From: Carcharhinus amblyrhynchos | Lineage: Eukaryota | Length of the DNA: 64,000 nucleotides | Direction: 5' to 3' | NCBI GenBank assembly: GCA_965287045.1 | Contig: OZ336888.1 | Span: forward strand, 20,522,001 to 20,586,000 | Part shown: in pieces, positions 32,511 through 61,039 of the stretch | How the letters are laid out: every line of letters starts with the position of its first letter | Position numbering within the stretch: the first letter of the stretch is position 1 | Translations under genes and position numbers: made by a program | Notes under the pieces: model-generated | The model's input: the letters and a program-made list of their open reading frames with translations, nothing else | What the model was told of the DNA's origin: nothing | Database searches by the model: none

Positions 32511-33249
32511 ATTCATGACTTTAGAGTACTGTCTGACCATTACACAGCCCTGTCAATGCAGACCTAAATGCAATTAGTTGAGTTGATTTCTGCTGCAGTC
32601 ATGAAATCATCAAATATTGCCTTTTCTATTGCTTTTGAACCCTTAGTAAAGTCTTTTATTTTCAGATTCCAAGTTCCAACATGGATGTGAATCTCATGAA
32701 CAATGAATGTTTTAGATTCTTTGAGTGTGACCTAATCTAAAAGATTCAACAATAAATGGGACATTCCAGAAATGTTTGTAGATTGCTGACATTGTGCAAC
32801 AGCCATTGCCACATAGTTGATAAATGCACTAGAAAACTGCCTTCTGATAAATCAATCCAGTGTCTTGACATTGGCATTTTCTCCGATTCCTTGGTTATAA
32901 CAGTCTTTTGTTGAGCAAGGTGCAACAAGTGCACAGCTCACGAGGCTCCTTTTGTGTGCAGTCAGTTGCATTGTTATAAAATTTCTGTCCACACCTTCCA
33001 TTTCAGAAATCAAAGTTCCCTCTTACTCTGATACCAAACCCCAACCATTTGGTGAAAGCCAACGGTTTAAATTAACCACAACAGTAACAGTGGATGGAAC
33101 ATGAAAGACATGGAGAACTAAACAGTGACTTTATCCACTTGACCTCATTGCCGTGAATTCATTAATGTTGAAGACAGCCTCACTCTTCTCCTGAACCACT
33201 CACCAATGCCTCCCACTCCGCTGACACTGATTTATCAAGAAGATCTTGC

Positions 33250-33786
33250 ACCTGCGCAAGGATATTTTGGCCCTGGAGGGAGTGCAGAGGAGGTTTACTA
33301 GGCTGATACCGGAGTTGAGGGGATTGAGCTATGAGGAGAGGCTGAATAAACTAGGCTTGTACTCGTTAGAGTTTAGAAGAATGAGGGGAGATCTCATTGA
33401 GACGTATAAGATGATGAATGGGATGGATAGGATAGAGGTGGAGAGACTCTTCCCACTCAAAAAAGACAGTAGGACTAGGGGGCACAGCCTCAAGATAAAG
33501 GGGAGGCGGTTTAGAACGGAGTTGAGGAGGAACTTCTTCGCTCAAAGGGTGGTGAATCTCTGGAATTCTCTGCCCGTTGAAGTGGTGGAGGCTGCCTCGC
33601 TAAATATTTTTAAGAAGCGGGTTGATGGGTTCTTGATAAGAGAGGGGATTAAGGGTTATGGGGAGAGGGCGGGAAAGTGGAACTGATCCACTTCAGATCA
33701 GCCATGATCTTATTGAATGGCGGGGCAGGCTCGAAGGGCTAGATGGCCTACTCCTGCTCCTATTTCTTATGTTCTTATGTTCTTAT
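33250..33786 (+). mobile_element. Young 5'-truncated CR1 LINE with open ORF2 C-terminus
   Basis: 146-aa uninterrupted ORF (LEGVQRRFTRLIP...RNFFAQRVVNLWNSLP), CpGs retained, (ttcttatg)n tail. Confidence 0.95.
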
Positions 33787-36133: not shown

Positions 36134-36251
36134 AGATTTGCATAGAATCAGGAACTTTTCAACCAGCGATATATATCATGTTTTGGACTGTTACTTAATT
36201 CATTGCACTCTTGATTATGTTTTTAAGACAATGATCTTTGTTTTAATGCAG

Positions 36252-36322
36252 AAGAGTTGAGGAAGTTCAGCTGGTCTGGAATCCCAAGACAGGTTCGACC
36301 AATTACGTGGAAACTTCTTTCA
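36252..36322 (+). CDS. TBC1D22A: Internal coding exon (71 nt) of a TBC1D22-family Rab GTPase-activating protein, start of TBC domain
   Basis: ttttaatgcag|AA GAG TTG...CTT TCA|gtaagt. Translates (E)ELRKFSWSGIPRQVRPITWKLLS, matching TBC1D22A/B as recalled; SWSGIP and WKLLS are A-like. Paralogue assignment is less certain than family. Confidence 0.93.
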
Positions 36323-38229: not shown

Positions 38230-39300
38230 GACAAAGGTAGACTATTCTCCTTTGTTCTTATCAACCTGTGATGAGATTGGGAACAGTATGCTCCTTAATT
38301 ATAGCACCATGGTTGAGGCTGCTGATTCCATTGTATCCAATCATGTTTAATCTGCAATGGCTTCTCTTTCCACTCGCACAACATTGCCTCTGACATGTCT
38401 CAAGAATTTATCCTTGATCCTTTCTTATCTCTCATCGATATGTTGCTCCACAATGGCAACATCAGAAAACACAACATTAGGTTTCACATGTACACTCATG
38501 ATGCCCAGCTCTACCTCAGTCTCCTCTCCTCAAGTGCTCCATTTGTGCTTGTCTGACATTCAGTATTGAATGAACAGAAATTTCTTCTCATGAAATGTAA
38601 TTGTCTTCTATATTCTGTATCTGAGGACTTCATCTCCCTTCCTTGCAACTATACAAGGCTGAGTCAGACTGTTTGCCACCTTACTTTTATGTTTGACCAT
38701 GATGTGAGCTTCTTGACAAAATATCCATGCCATCAACAAGACCATTCACCTCCACCTCCATGACCATATCCAACTTGTCCACTACCTAACCGCATTTACT
38801 TCCATGCCTTTGTTGCCCCTCAACTTGACTACTTGGAGGCACACTCAGCTGGCTTTTCATGTTCTATCTGCCCTAAGGTTGAGGTCATCAAAATCACTCC
38901 TTGCACTGAGTCTTGTTTGCCAATGAAACCTGTACTTGCTGACCTACATTGGTATCTGTTTAAACAAAACTCTCACCCTTGCTTTCAAATTCCTCAATGA
39001 CTTAAACCTCCCAGTCTCTAATTTCCTCCTTCCTCACAATCTCAGTGATATCTGTATTCCTCTAATTCTGGCCACTTGGACATTCCCAGTTCTAATTTGC
39101 TCCACCATTGATGGTTGTGCCTTCAGCTTTCATGGTCCTAAGGTCTGGAACTGCCTCCTTAAACCTCTGCAACGCTATACACCACTTGCTTTGAGATGCT
39201 CCTTGATACCTATCTCTTTGACCAAAGATTTGGTATCCTGCCTTAATATTGCTCTAGTTGGCTCTGTTTCAAATATTGTGTTCTAATTTCCCTGTGAAGT
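38230..39300 (+). mobile_element. Decayed L2-like LINE
   Basis: ttcacatgtacactcatgatgcccagctctac (degenerate FHMYADDTQLY), cttgactac, GCAFSFHGPKVWNCL. Confidence 0.7.
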
Positions 39301-39683
39301 ACCTGGGAACATTTTATTACTTTGAAGGTTCTGTCTAATTATAAGTAGTTTCAGCATCACTGCTGTAACACAGTGACACTTGCTGCTGCACATTTCTGCC
39401 AGTATAGCTTTCATAAATTCAAGTTGCACATCTTTATAGCCATCTCTACAACAGTGCGATTCAGATGGTCTCAGACTCAGGTCACAGATAACACTGTTAA
39501 ATAAAAGCAAAATACTGTGGATGCTGGAGATCATAGAATCCTACAGTGCAGAAGGAGGCCATTCAGCCCATCAGGTCTGCACCAACCACAATCGCCCTAT
39601 TCCCATAATGCCATGCATTTACCCCTGACACTAAGAGGCAGTTTAGCATAACCAATCCACACATCTCTGGACTATGGGAGGAA

Positions 39684-39895
39684 CACAGTAAAAAGTCTGA
39701 CAACACCAGGTTTTAGTCCAACCTATTTATTTGATAATATTCTCACAAGCTTTCGAGGGGACAGCCTCACCTGACGAAGAGGCTGTCCCCTCGAAAGCTT
39801 GTGAGAATATTATCAAATAAATAGGTTGGACTAAAACCTGGTGTTGTCAGACTTTTTACTGTGTTTACGCCAGTCCAACGCCGGCATACCCACAT
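39684..39895. mobile_element. Palindromic Penelope-type insertion, copy 3 (young)
   Basis: Perfect inverted repeat 39682-39768 / 39779-39865. TSD ctatgggaggaa at 39672-39683 and 39896-39907. Confidence 0.9.
39766..39805 (+). ncRNA. Minimal type I hammerhead ribozyme motif, intact core
   Basis: CTCAC-CTGACGA-A-GAGG-ctgtcc-CCTC-GAAA-GC-TT-GTGAG: 5-bp stem I, 4-bp stem II, palindromic AGCT stem III. Confidence 0.75.
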
Positions 39896-40964
39896 CTATG
39901 GGAGGAAACCAGAGCACCCAGAGAAAACCCATGCAGACACGGGGAGAATGTGCAAACTCCACACAGACCATGACCCAAGCCAGGAATTGAACCTGGGTCC
40001 CTGGTCCTGTGAGGCAGCAGTGCCACCATGCTGCCTGCAAGACCTAAAATTAAAACCAAGTGCTGGAAAACTCCACAGGCCTGGCAGCATTTGTGGAGAG
40101 AGAAACGGAGTTAACATTTTGATACGCCTCTTCTTTGAAGTGCAATGTAGTGGTAATATTCTTAACTTCCTTTATCATTAACAACAAATTAGGATCACTT
40201 ATTCACCATTTTGTTAAATTTTTAATATTAAAAATTGCTGTAACTCTGTTGGGTAATATTAAGGGAAATCACTTTGAACCATCAGGTAAGCCTAATCAAT
40301 GTAAATTGGCGTGAATTTTCAGCCAATTAGCAAGCCATGGATTGTGTAGAATAATGCAAGCTTTCTCATTTGATCAGGTAGCAATTCTTTCCAATCCCAT
40401 GGCAGAAGTAAGTTTCATGTCTCGGCAATCCTTTCCTTTTTCCCATTTGATTTATTCTGCTTTTTATCCCCTGGACATTTTAGCCATCTGGTATCTAGTT
40501 GTGTCTTAATAAAACAGGCAAGATAAAGAATATATGAATATGCATATTTGTTTTGCCTCACCATTTTTATGATCGCAAGTCCCACTACCCAACAGGTAGG
40601 TTTTTATTTAATTTGTGTGAAATTGTAAAACCTGAAATTAAATGTTATTTGGTGACCTGGGAGGTTGGGTGGGAGTTGAGGTCTGCTGGGATTCTGTTTT
40701 AGAGAGTCCTTGAAGTTTGTTTAGACGTTTACAAGTTAGGTTTTTAAGCTTCATTATTTGAAACAGATTATGTTGCTGAATCCAGAAACATAATGTTGAA
40801 TGGAGTAATGAGAACCAAATTAAAAAGCCCTCCAAGTATCCGAATGGAAAATCTGTATGTTGTTTGAAGTAGCTGATAGTATTGATGTAACACAAGGATT
40901 TCAGAGGTTCTCCAACATTTCTTGTGATGTGCAATGTTGTTTTCCATGTGATACTTTTGCCAGT

Positions 40965-47826: not shown

Positions 47827-47955
47827 GGTTACTTACCTGCCAATGCTGAAAGAAGAGAAAGCACACTACAGCGGAAACGAGCAGAGTACTTTGCTTTTAT
47901 TGAACAATACTATGACTCTAGAAATGATGAACATCATCAAGACACATACAGACAG
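47827..47955 (+). CDS. TBC1D22A: Internal coding exon (129 nt, phase 0-0) of TBC1D22
   Basis: ttctgttttatttccag|GGT TAC...AGA CAG|gtattt. Translates GYLPANAERRESTLQRKRAEYFAFIEQYYDSRNDEHHQDTYRQ, in frame with the previous exon. Confidence 0.95.
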
Positions 47956-48119
47956 GTATTTGGACTGAAATCTTTCCTGTACTGGCTTTGTTGCATCCCT
48001 TCCTATTGAAATATGCACCTTGTGTGTGAAGTTGAAGTCTCCACTTTTTTCATCATAAGGCCTCTGGAGTTAAAAGTTCTTGCTGTGGCAGATGAATGTG
48101 CTAACTCATCAACAGCTTG

Positions 48120-48360
48120 CAATTATGCAATGCCTTCAACATAGGTAACACTGGTAAATTGGGAGCCAGTACTTGTCAGTGAGCCCAGTGATGATGGGGG
48201 AACGAGACTTGGTACAAGTTTGGATATAAGCAGCTGTGTTTCGGATGAGCTCAGGATGATGAATTGGGAGGCCAGCTACGATGGTATAAATAGACAGCCT
48301 TTGTGATTTAAGGGTATGGATTTGAAAGCTCAAGGCTAAGATTGTGAACAGTCTGCAGCA
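48120..48360 (-). mobile_element. L2-like LINE fragment
   Basis: Peptide ELIRNTAAYIQTCTKSRSPIITGLTDKYWLPI resembles L2 'LIQNAAA...HITPVLxxLHWLP'. Confidence 0.7.
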
Positions 48361-49255
48361 ACCTGAGCTCTATTTTCATCCCTTCTGAGGCCCCAATCCC
48401 AACTTGGTAAAGTTGCCATTGTGTTTCCACTTGGTACTGATTTAAGATGTTTCGGGTGTACATTGATTGAAAAAACAACCACATAACTCTATGGCTATGG
48501 CACAGTCTGACTTTGGAATGAATTAAACCGAACATGGGAGGGATGCCTTCCAACTCTTCCTGTACCACTTGAGTTTTAGATCGTGCAGAATGTGGCTCAA
48601 GTTTCTGATGCAAACTAATGCTTGGTATAGTATCAATATGCCAGGCAAACACTTAGTAAGATACACACAACAGGCATGACAATGGGGTACGTTATATGAT
48701 TGCAAAAATGGTATTAAAATGAACATTTAAATTGTTTTGGACTATCAAATCACTGGCAATTCAATAGGCCCATCATTAAATTCAGAATGTTATCATCTCT
48801 CAATCAGAATGTACTTACTCAGAATTTTAAATTTAAAATGGAGCTCCATTATTAGGACAAAGATGATGCATTTCTTGGTACTGGGCTTAACACTTCATTT
48901 TAACTGAAGGCAAACTGTAATCCATTTTCTTTATCTTGTGAAATATTATGAAGAGGAAAAGTAACTGCATTATTTTAAAAGGCTGCATTAAATTGAGAAA
49001 AACAATTTGCCCAGAATGCCCTGCAGGGCACAATTTGAAAGACGATGCCGTTTCTCTCTCTCAGTCTTGGTGGCAAACTTCAGCCAAAAAAAAAATTACA
49101 GAAATTTAAATATTTGCCTCATTTAATAGAGGAAGGACTTAGACTGTAAACTGGTGTTTAAAAGCATTGGTTTGTTATGGTTTTTGGGGTCAGAAAATGG
49201 AAAAATGTTTTAGACAACTTTTTCCTGAAACTTCATTGTTTTTCTAAACCATCAG

Positions 49256-49318
49256 ATTGCCATAGATATACCTCGTATGACTCCTGAGAGTTTAATACTG
49301 CAACCAAAAGTAAAAGAG
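49256..49318 (+). CDS. TBC1D22A: Arginine-finger exon, copy a (63 nt, TBC1D22A-type)
   Basis: ttgtttttctaaaccatcag|ATT GCC ATA GAT ATA CCT CGT...AAA GAG|gtaaga. Translates IAIDIPRMTPESLILQPKVKE; human TBC1D22A as recalled is IHIDIPRMSPEALILQPKVTE. Not in the ORF track. Confidence 0.9.
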
Positions 49319-51528
49319 GTAAGAGCTTTGGGAATGAAGTAAAATACTATCTTTGCCCTGCCTCATCCACCAGTACCATAACTAAAGCTCCTGTGATTGG
49401 CTATATGGTTTGATTTTTGCAGAGCTGGGTTTCTCATTTGATCAGTTCCAATTGCTTAAAATCCTTCCTGTGTATTTTCTTGAAATTGTTTCAATCAGTA
49501 TTATTTGTGATGCCTTGTGATTGTCATATCAACACCAATTACTTCTGTATTAATGATGAAACATGGTTTGAGAGTCATCCACAGAATTAGTACATGACTG
49601 AGTATTGGGGCTTGATTTTTTTTTTATACAGGGCTTTTTTACTCTCCGACAGCCATATGTGCCTGTAGAGGCTAAGCTATAGGTGAAAGGACAAGCACAA
49701 GAATCTATGCTTCTGCCAACACCAACTTATTTGTCAGTTAGGAAAATTGCCATTTATATTTGAATTTGCAACAGCCCCTTCCACTTTGTCAAAGTTGCAA
49801 CATCTTGTGCCACCTCATGAGTCATTGATAATTTTGGATTGCTATAAATGTCTACAACTTGACAATTTCAATTAATGATGGACATTCCCATTGAACCAAG
49901 GGCAGAATCACAGTGCACTGGTGTGGTGTGAAGCTCAGACAAACCTTGCTGATGTTTTAGTTGTTTTCAGTGTTTTACATACATTCCTGTTCATAATCTC
50001 AGTTTGATGCTAATGGTTAGAATGCTATTTGGGGCCATGTTTGCTGACTAAACTTTTGTTGTATTGACTCTTAAATAAAAGTAGGAAGTGAGATAAAGAT
50101 TGTGACTAGCTCCCTGTTATGAATTGTGAAGGAAAAGAGAGAATTTGGGAGCTGTTTTGAGAGGTAAATCTTATCTAGTGGAGATTATCTAGGTTTTGAT
50201 TTTGTTGTATTGGCACTGCAGCCACTGAAAATGTAATGATGACCCTCAGCTGTAAAGCAGTAGGAAGCTGTAGTTAAGTTGTGTCCTAGTTGCCAAGGAA
50301 TGGAGAAAGCAGTTCTGGGTTTCTGCAGCATTCCAGCTATCTGTTTTCTGCAGGTGGTTGGGTCTACACAATGTGTAGAAATTGGGAGATGATCTCTTGT
50401 GCTATCAGAGGACCCTTTAAGGGGAAGAGACAGCTCATGTCAAAGGTTGGTTGATTGATGATGCAAGAGTAGTTATCTTCAAGCTGATCTTGTCCTTTTG
50501 TCACTGGTGAGCAAAGATACCACTCCTGCAGCAGAACTCTCCTTTTTAATGCAGTTGACTCGTGACAAATGAATGGGTGGTAGCAAGTGAAAATTTAATG
50601 GTGTTTAATTAGGAAGTCAGTTTGCAAGCATAGCTTCTCAACTTGACTATTGCCCTCAATTCCAATAATTGATTTCAAGTGCTTCCTCCTATAGACATTT
50701 ATCACTTAACTTCCCGTGCCGATACATGCACTCAGCACTTTTGTCTAAACTGACTCATCTTGGCAGTTGAATAATACTCGATGCTGAAGTTCAGTATTAG
50801 TGTCAATGTGAAGTTAGAGATTCCAGTCTTCAGAATGCAGCTATCGATCTGAGTTAGGCTAAACAAGGAAACGCTGAAAAAAGATTGCAAGTAAAACTGC
50901 CCAAAAACAGCTATTTTGCACTAAGACAGTCACATGCAAACATATGTTCTTAGGTTCTTATGTACATACATTGCTGTTATCCATTGATCTGGTGAAGTAA
51001 CTTATCCTTAGAATTTTTTGAATTGCATAACAATCACCATGATTTTTGCTGATTAAGCTATAAACTTTTGAGACAAGATTAGAGGTCAGTTTGCAAACAA
51101 GAAGCTTATATAGGATCAAAGATTGCTTAAAAATTTGTGCAGTAAATAAACTGAAAATGTGGATGGTTCTTAAGAATGTTTCATCTCTTCTAGATTTCTG
51201 TAAAACTGGAATATGGAAATGATAGTAAAACTGAATTATCTTTGAAGTATTGATATTATTGATTCACCCAGCTCTGCAAATACAGCAGGCATGGACAAAG
51301 CTAGGATTCAGAGTTGCAAAGTTGGTTCTGTTGCTAAATGTATTCAAGGAGCACTTAACCTTGAATTGTGACTCTTCAATACATTGGGTATTCCTAAACA
51401 AATGGCACCGCACTCTGCAGCTGAGAAACTTGGCTTTGAGTCCCAGCTAAATGCTAGCAATCGCCTTGACTGGCTGCACCACCAGGAATAATTTCGCCTC
51501 TGCTACTGTTTTCTTTCTTTATTTACAG

Positions 51529-51594
51529 ATTCATATTGATATTCCAAGAACTAATCCTCTTATTCCTCTCTTTCAACAAGCTTCTGTGCAAAAG
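51529..51594 (+). CDS. TBC1D22A: Arginine-finger exon, copy b (66 nt, TBC1D22B/Gyp1-type)
   Basis: ttttctttctttatttacag|ATT CAT ATT GAT ATT CCA AGA...CAA AAG|gtgaga. Translates IHIDIPRTNPLIPLFQQASVQK; human TBC1D22B as recalled is IHIDIPRTNPLIPLFQQPLVQE. Lies inside ORF 51451..51645. Confidence 0.92.
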
Positions 51595-53229
51595 GTGAGA
51601 GAACTAATAAATGATGGGCCAGCACTGCTTGAATGGTGTAACTAAAAACAAAACAGAAACGCTGATTTCAATGTATAATTCACTCAGTTTTAGCTGGATT
51701 ATAAGAAGTTGATGCCTGCATGATAATTTGGCAATTATTGTTTACATGGAGTTCCATGGGGAAAGCTGAATCATGTTAACCTGCCATGTGCAGTTTCACC
51801 TTTGTTAGAGAATCAAGCAGATTTTCATGCACTTGTTCATGCGCTGCTGGTCTATCAAGCTGCCTGATGCACAATGTCAACTTAAATGAGCATTCTGTAA
51901 TAAAGTTGCAAGAATCTTAATGCATCATTGTTTCTAACTACCACTTGACCTCGTTGAACGAAATGACCGAGTTTAAGCTAATGTTTTTGGCTTGCATCAC
52001 ACGACTAATTTGATACTGACATTCAGTAGTTTTGCAGTTGAAAGTAAATCAGTATCTGTTTTTACGCTTACTCTCTCACTTGTTTTTCTTTGAGTTTTCT
52101 TTCTATTGGCGGCTAATGATCATGTGAAGAAAATGTGCAGTGAGACGGTGGCGAAGCTGTTCTGTTGAAAATTTTCTTTTTTGTGGTGCTGCATCTGAAA
52201 GTTCTTTCAATCTGCGTTTTTACTGCAGCAGTAGGCTAATTAGAATGATTTCACTTGGAAATAAATCTGTATTCCAGTAACATTTCAGAGTTAACCTGAG
52301 CAGTGGTTCTAATTAATTGTCTTTCTGCACCGAACAAAGCTGAGGATTGAGGGAACTTGTCTCCCGATACTTTAATGAGACCAAGGAAAGATCCAAGTTG
52401 AAGTAATTGTGCATCTTTGTGTGAAGTTCATTTGGTATACTTGAAAATTTTTGGCTTGTTTTTGTACCACTTAAAAGTGCTATATTTGAAAAGGGATAAC
52501 TTTTAACTGTTGTAATTTGCAACTGCTGAATGCTTGACCCTTTGTCATGATACTTGTATAATTGTTAATTTTTATCCACCACTTCCTTTGATGCCCTTGT
52601 CTGTCGGAAAACATGTATTCTCATCATCTGGATTAGTCCCATTACTGTAGATCCCATGTTTTTCTCACACCCAAAGGACACAGACTTAACAAAATCTGGC
52701 ACATTTTAGCCATTTGTCAGATCTGACTGAAATGCTAGAAGTGCTTATTTTGTACTCATGCATGGAAGGAGAATGTTGCTGGTGAAGCCATTATTTATTG
52801 CCCATTCCTTAATTGCCATTAAGAAGGTGACGGTGAACTGCCACCTTGAACTGCTGCAGTTAACTTGGTGTTACACACCCACAGTTGGGTAGGATTTTGA
52901 TCCAGTGACAATGAAGGAATGATAAAGGTTTCCAAATCAAGATGGTGTGTGACTTGGTGGTGGGCCACTATTGGGCTGCCTCCTTTTCTGCTAAGGCCGC
53001 CCACAGCTGTAGGATTGCCCCAGATAGGAAAGGTAATCCAGGGCATCATCTTTCATGAAATTCCTGACACTGGTCCTGGAAAACATTTCCTCCCAGATTT
53101 GTGTCCACTCTTTCTATAGCATTATCTGAGTCTTCCCAATTTCTGCCATGTTGAAATGTCCTTAAGCTAAATCACATCTGCCATCTCCTGTGATCTTTTC
53201 AAGATCTGCAAACTTATCTGATGCTTCTA

Positions 53230-54120
53230 CAGTGCTTGTGCAAGAGAAGCCATAGATCAATTTGGCTAATATCTATCTGTTGTTGGGAAGTTGCTAGAGT
53301 CTGTAACAACTTCTCTGAATAACTAACTTGACCATTTTTGGCCAACCAAAGAAAGCCAGTATGGATTGTGATACGGTTCGTTATGTTTGATGAGTCTGAT
53401 TGGTTTTTTATTTCAATAGGTGAATGAGATAGTGGACAGGGGAATGTCTATGCATTGTTATTTGTATGGACTTCCAGAAGAAGTGTTAGCTAAAACAGAA
53501 TTGAATGTAAATTATTGACATAGTTATTTATTAACAACATAGAAGATGGAATAGAAAGCCCAAATGCAAATTTGTCAATGATACAAATACCTTAAGCAGT
53601 GTAGGTTGGAACATAAAGTTAGAAAGAGATATTAATACGTTAAGCAAATGGATTAGAGTGTATTTCAATGTGAGGTCATCCACTTCAGATGGGATAGATC
53701 AGAAAATTTTCTAAATGATAAGCTGGAAACACTGGTGATCCAAAGAGATGAGAGGTCTGTATGCATATACCATTAAAACACCATGAACTGGTATGGGAAT
53801 TAACCAAAAATATGATTGGGATACTGATGTTTACGTAAAAGGTGAGAATACAGGGGGATAGAAACCATTCAGCCTTAGGTGGAACATACTTGGAGCACTG
53901 CATTCCATTCTGGCCAGCAGACTGTAAGAAGATTCATTTGGAAAGAAATAGATTTGAGTTTCTCAAAATGAGACACGGCTTTCTAGGGTTAAAGTACAAG
54001 AAAAGGTTCCTGAGAATTTAAAGCTTAAGGGATGATTTTGATCAATGGTTTCAAGCTTTAAGGGGAACAGATAGGGTAGATAGAAGCTGTTTCAGCTGGC
54101 TGGGTATCGAGGACTACGGA
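53230..54120 (+). mobile_element. Heavily decayed CR1 LINE
   Basis: gtatggacttccagaag (MDFQK), ttggagcactgcattccattctgg, aagcttaagggatgattttgatc. Confidence 0.6.
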
Positions 54121-60162: not shown

Positions 60163-60532
60163 GCCTGCGCCGATCATGCTTACCTCTCGAGACCAATCAC
60201 TTATATCCCTGTATTCCCTGTCTGCTTATGTGTCTATCCAGATAGTCTTAAATGGCGCTAATGTGTCTGCCTGAATCACCTCACTTGGCAGTGCATTCCA
60301 GGCCCCCACCACCCTCTGTGTGGAAAAAAAAAACTTCACCCACACATCTCTACTGAACCTTTTCCTCTCTTATCTTGTACTTGAGCCCCCTTGTAACTGT
60401 TATTTCTGCCCTGGAAGCTTTCAACTGTCCACCCTATCCATACCCTTCATAACTTTATAGATGTCTATCAGGTCACCCCTCAGTCTCCGTCTTTCCAGGG
60501 GGAACAATCCCAGTTTATTCAATCTCTCCTCT
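60163..60532 (-). mobile_element. CR1 LINE 3' end
   Basis: gcattccaggcccccaccaccctctgtgtg...ctatcaggtcacccctcagtctccg. Confidence 0.8.
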
Positions 60533-61039
60533 GTTCTATATTTGGGACAAAAAGGTGTTCCTCATCTCCCAACCCTTGTCACTGTGAATGCAGCACTGAA
60601 GATTATCATTTTACCCATCGTACTTGTGCCAGCTCTTCAAAAGTGCTCTTTGTTAGTTCCACTCCTTTGCTCTTTCTCCATTGCACTACAAAGTTATTAT
60701 TTCTGCTTCTATTACCCTTTCTGGTAGTGCCATGTGCCCTCTTGAAGGAAAAGGCCATTATGCTGACCCGTGTTACTATATTTTCCTTGCTTACAAATTA
60801 AGGATCTGCGTGCCTTTTCAACATCCTCATCAATGTCCTGTGCTATCTCAAGGTCTGCACATTCTGCACCAGGCTCTCTTCTTGCACCTCCTTTAAAATG
60901 TACCATTTTGTTCATATTGCCTTTCATAATTTTTCTTATCAAAATGGATTGCTGCGCATTCTTTGGATTTCAACAGTTGATGTGGCTTCCTGAAGTCTGT
61001 TATTATCCTCTTCACTGTTGGCAGCTTTGTCTTTTACTA

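Follow-up and report, generated by a model that had tools for sequence, protein, structure and literature searches.

Tandem arginine-finger exons in the TBC1D22A gene of a shark encode TBC1D22A-type and TBC1D22B/Gyp1-type active-site segments that are likely alternated by splicing

The determinants of TBC-domain specificity are, to our knowledge, still poorly understood, and a locus of the shark Carcharhinus amblyrhynchos raises the question whether a single gene can supply two versions of the active site of a Rab GTPase-activating protein. The window, i.e., the whole stretch of 64,000 nucleotides analyzed here, lies on contig C19 of a 2.92-Gb genome and contains two neighboring exons, hereinafter a and b, each of which encodes an IxxDxxR segment (Table 1). 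In conventional TBC GAPs, the IxxDxxR and YxQ motifs provide the catalytic arginine and glutamine, respectively, as stated in the accessible part of PMC13090580. Our main reading, to which we assign a probability of about 0.6, is that splicing of these tandem arginine-finger exons likely yields proteins with either a TBC1D22A-type or a TBC1D22B/Gyp1-type active site, which would grip Rab proteins differently.

Table 1. Coordinates of the exons and intronic features discussed in the text (positions in the window unless a contig is given)
Feature	Position	Strand	Remarks
Upstream coding exon of TBC1D22A (EELRKFSWSG...WKLLS)	36251..36322	+	tblastn of P0012, 24/24 residues; 5' boundary approximate
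Upstream exon ending DTYRQ	47827..47955	+	129 nt; 100% match to shark TBC1D22A proteins
Conserved intronic stretch upstream of exon a	49188..49255	+	matches exon-a extension annotated in Scyliorhinus canicula (P0023)
Exon a	49256..49318	+	63 nt, 21 codons; TBC1D22A-type IxxDxxR segment; conserved from sharks to human
Exon a Arg codon CGT	49274-49276	+	arginine of IxxDxxR
Helix left arm, candidate	49416..49436	+	inside a-b intron; common to two alternative predicted RNA helices
Right arm 1, candidate	51266..51280	+	perfect 15-nt complement of 49416-49430; -27.4 kcal/mol
Right arm 2, candidate	51422..51438	+	17 bp including G-U pairs with 49420-49436; -22.3 kcal/mol
Exon b	51529..51594	+	66 nt, 22 codons; TBC1D22B/Gyp1-type IxxDxxR segment; nearly invariant in fishes
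Exon b Arg codon AGA	51547-51549	+	arginine of IxxDxxR
Downstream exon (IFERIL...GYVQG...)	C19:20590950-20591064		carries YxQ motif

Exon a (IAIDIPRMTPESLILQPKVKE; acceptor ...CATCAG, donor GTAAGA) and exon b (IHIDIPRTNPLIPLFQQASVQK; acceptor ...TTACAG, donor GTGAGA) are both free of stop codons, in phase 0-0, bounded by an AG acceptor and a GTRAG donor, and preceded by the exon ending with DTYRQ, which encodes the start of the helix bearing the arginine finger. They are separated by an intron of 2210 nt, and the pyrimidine tract is weaker at exon a (0.67) than at exon b (0.79). The aspartate and the arginine of the IxxDxxR motif are intact in both. The encoded peptides are identical at 10 of 22 aligned residues, with an alignment score of 31 that was matched by none of 10,000 shuffles; at the DNA level, the two exons share 34 of 66 positions. 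The anatomy and the shuffle test agree with the description given in the first-pass annotation of this DNA, namely, two homologous in-frame arginine-finger exons 2.2 kb apart. A scan for extra copies covered 164 open AG..GT/GC candidates of 60-69 nt across the 21 kb that separate the flanking exons, and among these, only exon a (in two lengths) and exon b scored above 10 against either peptide; neither a third nor a decayed copy was found in the introns searched on C19 and on C22, the contig that carries TBC1D22B. The downstream exon, located 5 kb past the edge of the window, contains the YxQ glutamine-finger motif in the form GYVQG.

By sequence comparison, the locus is TBC1D22A, orthologous to A rather than to B. 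The exon upstream of the pair is identical to that of shark proteins named TBC1D22A (Table 1), exon a ends with KVKE, like Mustelus asterias entries, and at the diagnostic residues that differ between C19 and C22, the former agrees with human A and the latter with human B. The upstream exon has one other match in the genome, in the TBC1D22B gene on C22, where a single b-type exon follows 458 nt after the upstream exon; an a-type exon or a remnant thereof is absent from both introns that flank this exon in this genome. Between shark A and shark B, the upstream exon is identical at 38 of 43 residues, exon b at 20 of 22 and the downstream exon at 34 of 38, compared with 12 of 22 for exon a, which is the most diverged core exon with respect to shark B, the other compared exons being 88-91% identical. 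In the DNA, exon b and the TBC1D22B exon are identical at 58 of 66 nucleotides (88%), and exon a matches these two at 34 and 36 of 66. That TBC1D22B donated exon b, by gene conversion or by transfer, was considered on account of this identity but is not supported, synonymous identity being 14/20, compared with 36/71 in the flanking exons (p = 0.14).

The high identity of exon b to its TBC1D22B counterpart could also be taken as a sign that the assembly is a chimera of two paralogous loci, or that the pair includes a dead pseudo-exon. However, the locus is covered by collinear DNA contigs of three organisms: for one related organism, a single contig spans the upstream exon, a and b in each of two runs, a contig of a second organism spans a and b, and in all four contig runs, the TBC1D22B layout is found on a separate contig (the best-matching organism among the contig sources, which may be the source of the window itself, was not counted as independent). 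Together with the location of TBC1D22B on a different contig of the assembly and the conservation of the pair across fishes, these observations render the probability of an artifact practically negligible. The 40 differences listed, out of 226, include none in the exons or in the helix arms discussed below, a number that is too small to gauge conservation. The first-pass annotation had allowed for a chimera, which these findings refute, and for one exon being never spliced and unconserved, which is contradicted by the use of each exon alone in transcripts of relatives and by the conservation of both in fishes.

The two segments have counterparts in solved structures. The form encoded by exon a is that of human TBC1D22A (PDB 2QFZ), and the form encoded by exon b is that of human TBC1D22B (PDB 6D0S) and yeast Gyp1 (PDB 1FKM, 2G77), in agreement with the A-form and B/Gyp1-form motifs given in the first-pass annotation; at the protein level, human A and B now differ by the exon type they carry. 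All these proteins share with shark TBC1D22A the TBC fold and the IxxDxxR and YxQ motifs, but each has one fixed segment, whereas the shark gene encodes both, and the forms of the shark gene that would contain both exons (a+b) or neither (skip-both) are without a solved counterpart.

The exons had been proposed to be mutually exclusive. In a census of the best 120 matches obtained with the upstream exon, which as a query does not favor a or b, 45 proteins carry a, 27 carry b, 35 are a+b, 8 are skip-both and 5 are other or unspliced forms, these figures being counts of annotations and not expression levels. Automated annotation of relatives thus already contains a-only, b-only, a+b and skip-both isoforms: the seven RefSeq isoforms of Mustelus asterias include three with a, three with b and one with both, and in zebrafish, NP_999964.1/AAS92640.1 is an a+b form and AAH85412.1 is b-only. 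Accessions of these types are cDNA-based. All three of the a-only, b-only and a+b forms are also present among multi-exon open reading frames assembled in Logan, which must derive from spliced RNA because they lie on short contigs. In two skate-like clusters, 7 sequences (18 contigs) are a-only and 4 sequences (7 contigs) are a+b, and the 6 Logan sequences of the zebrafish cluster each contain one exon of the pair (b in 5, a in 1); a+b was found in five Logan sequences. The look-ups covered 10 proteins, picked by hand as were the clusters, and so are no sample of expression.

No steric, frame-shift or donor-type barrier to co-inclusion was found in the exon anatomy; with both exon lengths multiples of three, a long intron and ordinary GTRAG donors, the anatomy does not forbid co-inclusion. 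Strict mutual exclusion did not withstand the census, in which more than a third of the proteins are either a+b (35/120) or skip-both (8/120), nor the a+b forms of the zebrafish NP_ protein and of assembled transcripts. As judged from the annotated and assembled forms of relatives, including the closest annotated shark, a and b behave as a pair of cassette exons, usually used one at a time but not strictly so. One could maintain that the exons are strictly exclusive and switched by tissue, with a+b and skip-both forms being minor splicing noise in deep annotation. Such a scheme is consistent with the prevalence of single-exon forms (72 of the best 120 upstream-exon matches), with the six zebrafish-cluster sequences, with the occurrence of skip forms in tetrapods too (4 rows), as noise would give, and with the typically exclusive splicing that is reported for tandem duplicated exons in the accessible part of PMC9741552. 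We nevertheless consider it unlikely, in view of the a+b structure of the zebrafish reference form, the sizeable a+b fraction in the skate-like clusters, and the features of the intron, exon lengths and donors noted above, among which no enforcing mechanism was found. For work on zebrafish tbc1d22a, it is worth noting that the NP_ reference protein carries both exons. Some bird and crocodilian TBC1D22A entries (P0419, P0424, P0426) skip exon a, resulting in in-frame proteins without the arginine finger.

The a+b product itself might be a regulated form of fishes, in which a 21-residue insertion beside the arginine finger would dampen or redirect GAP activity. This form is in frame and common in annotations, and it is the one given in several fish entries that bear no isoform suffix, but the query behind these entries favored a+b. 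An AlphaFold2 model of the a+b protein retains the TBC fold (TM 0.97 to 2QFZ, target-normalised), with the exon-a arginine located where helix 289-302 ends and with disorder over the additional residues 306-319; however, the model followed the gap placement of its alignment, in which 101 of 104 single-exon rows were already in that register, and an unbiased repeat with a+b sequences only was uninformative (mean pLDDT 42). All considered, a dedicated regulatory role of this product appears very doubtful.

Both exons are kept in chimaera, sharks, rays, bichirs, sturgeon, bowfin and teleosts. Exon b is present in 62 of the 107 fish proteins that hold either exon among the best 120 upstream-exon matches, and with a query biased towards a+b, the 120 matches listed all come from ray-finned or cartilaginous fishes or are unnamed. 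The presence of the pair in cartilaginous as well as ray-finned fishes implies that it likely dates to the jawed-vertebrate ancestor. On the tetrapod side, we used as the query the N-terminal part of a duck protein, which is neutral to exon choice. Among the 120 matches listed, 111 are tetrapod, coelacanth or unnamed, and 102 of these carry a by pattern and none carries b, whereas b is found in 6 of the 9 ray-finned rows; in this set, the coelacanth is represented by one partial a-only entry (P0517), lungfish is absent, and 109-member clusters (human's) are included via one representative. The contrast between 62 of 107 fish proteins and 0 of 102 proteins in the tetrapod-dominated set suggests that land vertebrates likely lost exon b, a conclusion drawn from protein annotations. 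Such a loss would explain the active-site difference between the human sister proteins.

The two exons differ in their degree of conservation: among 89 a+b proteins, which were found partly with a b-containing query, mean pairwise identity is 0.89 for exon a and 0.985 for exon b. Exon a has fixed residues of its own, with Glu11 in 62, Leu13 in 64, Gln16 in 65 and Pro17 in 63 of 66 distinct variants, the pattern used to collect variants having required Met8 and favored later residues. In the rays Pristis pectinata and Narcine bancroftii (P0022, P0024, P0029-P0032), exon b is changed at the otherwise fixed proline before the arginine and, in Narcine, also at the threonine after it; exon b may be relaxing in some rays. 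Exon a is more diverged in salmonid and catfish entries (P0079, P0093, P0111, P0116), and in one Oncorhynchus tshawytscha entry, glutamine replaces the catalytic arginine and the end is non-standard, which may reflect a decaying duplicate or misannotation.

Which of the two exons is closer to the ancestral state can be assessed from non-vertebrate orthologues, of which 104 remained from 150 representatives after manual removal of 21 vertebrate or fragmentary rows and exclusion of those lacking a usable motif. The spacing is b-like in 95 of the 104 and a-like in 2, and by score, 100 are nearer to b than to a. The arginine is followed by threonine in 78 and by methionine in 24: Arg-Met, as in exon a, is found in a sponge, a mollusc, chelicerates, an insect and nematodes, with Arg-Met-Ser-Pro in horseshoe crab, scorpion and dragonfly, and Arg-Thr is found in the cnidarian Clytia. 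By these counts, exon b is ancestral in length (22-residue spacing) and in its second half, and the Arg-Met of exon a is either convergent or retained. The proposal that copy b is ancestral and copy a derived accordingly holds for length and overall sequence but not for Arg-Met, which is common in invertebrate animals. Similarly, the first-pass annotation had attributed the A/B difference to differential exon retention rather than point divergence; human A and B do differ by exon type, but the dichotomy is a false one, as exon a diverged after the duplication through substitutions and a one-codon deletion.

In the simplest history, the A and B genes would have arisen first and the exon would then have been duplicated within A, the edge of this order over an earlier duplication being one of parsimony. 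A FastTree phylogeny had weak support and few B sequences, and was not used for orthology or timing. If, instead, the exon was duplicated before the A/B split, a would have disappeared early from TBC1D22B and b later from tetrapod TBC1D22A, which would amount to the full splice-isoform separation between the human paralogues that had been proposed initially. A retained methionine in exon a would favor this earlier date, and if Arg-Met-Ser-Pro was the chordate state, the threonine of b and of B arose once, before the gene duplication; Arg-Met is also commoner in the animal part of the weakly supported tree. Moreover, exon b is far more similar in DNA to the TBC1D22B exon than exon a is to either, and splice isoform separation is documented for 11 genes in the accessible part of PMC4494069. 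However, an early duplication requires two losses instead of one, the Arg-Thr of Clytia and of most non-vertebrate orthologues (78/104) indicates that this position flips, and at synonymous sites, b is not significantly more similar to B than the flanking exons are. The introns around the TBC1D22B exon on C22 contain no a-type exon or remnant, although a remnant so old would be unrecognizable, and the named orthologue rows are without lamprey, hagfish or amphioxus. We regard an early duplication as somewhat improbable.

Under the main reading, the exon duplication would precede the split of cartilaginous and bony fishes; exon b would then have stayed near the ancestral segment, exon a would have diverged after the arginine and lost one codon, and b would have disappeared in the land-vertebrate lineage, so that human TBC1D22A became fixed for the a form. 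The choice of exon is expected to alter the residues immediately following the arginine, together with the linker that leads into the next helix, and thereby may tune Rab recognition or turnover. As the aspartate and arginine are kept in both exons, a-only and b-only proteins should both be competent, and are predicted to be active GAPs; the a+b form is predicted to act as a GAP whose arginine is followed by a loop of 21 residues, and the skip-both form, lacking the arginine finger, is predicted to be inactive. The human proteins, as characterized in the accessible part of PMC12631847, differ in that TBC1D22B binds GTP-loaded RAB1B and inactivates it, whereas binding by TBC1D22A is negligible, and in that breast-cancer spheroid growth is driven by TBC1D22B and not by TBC1D22A. 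Human TBC1D22A, the a form, inhibits GPCR export, and mutant forms do not; it acts via a Rab that is unlikely to be Rab33, according to the portion of PMC6639060 available to us.

Conversely, the swap may change little, as the catalytic residues are kept in both exons and duplicated exons at active sites usually conserve binding residues (PMC9741552, accessible part); the difference between human A and B in RAB1B binding could then come from other regions. In its full form, this argument holds that the swap is biochemically near-neutral, with the same Rab specificity, that the pair is kept for subtle kinetics or stability, and that the human A/B differences arise elsewhere. Apart from the shared aspartate and arginine, it is consistent with the apparent ability of land vertebrates to manage without b and with the greater tolerance of exon a to change. 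On the other hand, both exons are intact from chimaera to teleosts despite the separate B gene, exon a has its own fixed residues, and it is the most diverged core exon with respect to B. On balance, near-neutrality seems rather unlikely, and a difference in Rab grip between the two forms remains our preferred reading. A much stronger version would make the pair the specificity switch of TBC1D22: early vertebrates would have spliced between a RAB1B-type target (b) and another target (a), fishes would still switch from one tissue to another, with a dampened a+b form made in addition via a looped intron, and exon losses would have frozen the two states into human A and B. We find this quite unlikely; if it were true, swapping 21-22 residues would interconvert human TBC1D22A and TBC1D22B. 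Irrespective of this extension, fish TBC1D22A presents both active-site segments in an otherwise identical protein and hence offers a ready-made controlled swap, so that the pair can serve as a natural swap experiment for TBC1D22A versus TBC1D22B.

Tandem duplicated exons and their separation into paralogues are already known as a class, and the TBC1D22A pair, although not strictly exclusive, resembles both in its workings. Like the homologous mutually exclusive exons described in the accessible parts of PMC8373072, PMC9741552 and PMC5740500, the TBC1D22A exons are adjacent and homologous, similar in length and identical in phase, and they share with such exons an ancient vertebrate origin and a catalytic arginine in both copies; KHK, in which a catalytic arginine lies inside the swapped region, is the nearest example. 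Unlike in those cases, co-inclusion and skipping are in frame and are seen, and human appears to be single-copy. Splice isoform separation, described for CALU, U2AF1, FYN, CACNA1C/D and others in the accessible part of PMC4494069, is similar in that human A and B have one exon type each and fish TBC1D22A has both, but differs in that the loss completing the pattern is much more recent and lies on the land-vertebrate lineage, and in that the exon duplication of TBC1D22 may have followed, not preceded, the gene duplication. That study, to judge from the same part, began from human genes with both exons, so that the TBC1D22 case was beyond its reach. In the supplements that could be searched for three human catalogues of exons of this kind, TBC1D22 had no match, with PMC4494069 and PMC5740500 covered in part, and no paper on the TBC1D22A exon pair was found by title or start of the abstract in a literature set that covers few subscription journals. 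The pair is real, ancient and, apparently, undescribed. It exemplifies a type of case overlooked by human-centered exon catalogues, in which a difference between paralogues traces to an exon pair that is now visible only in fishes.

The intron between a and b contains sequences that might contribute to the control of splicing. For the left arm listed in Table 1, there are two alternative pairing partners upstream of exon b, which suggests competing RNA helices, a prediction that we offer as a lead. These candidate helices are the strongest stacked ones in 47956-53600 and were picked post hoc; both are wholly within the a-b intron and loop out no exon. A helix as strong as that with right arm 1 was seen in 2 of 200 shuffles and in 5 of 50 tiles of the actual locus; for a second helix as strong as that with right arm 2, the respective numbers were 4 of 200 and 1 of 50. 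Helices that would loop out exon a or exon b in 47956-53600 have background energy only. The 15-nt arm occurs 16 times in the genome, compared with 0 occurrences of the reversed control, and thus is not a common repeat; these counts say nothing of function. A weaker direct copy of the left arm is located at 50309-50324. The conserved stretch immediately upstream of exon a, when translated, matches 21 of 22 residues of the N-terminal exon-a extension of Scyliorhinus canicula, across a 2-nt indel, which indicates good conservation between the two sharks; it is a possible splicing control element.

Several repetitive features were observed in and around the locus. A short repeated element at 48175-48253, in the intron upstream of exon a, attracts many unrelated loose-ended contigs in all four runs, and the tile 38611-40820 contains a 77-nt perfect inverted repeat, probably consisting of inverted copies of a mobile element. 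The N-terminus of the Mustelus proteins P0004 and P0007 yields weak matches to many repeated, stop-containing stretches at 33192-33401, at 60460-60537 and on C22; the first exon annotated in these proteins may derive from a mobile element.
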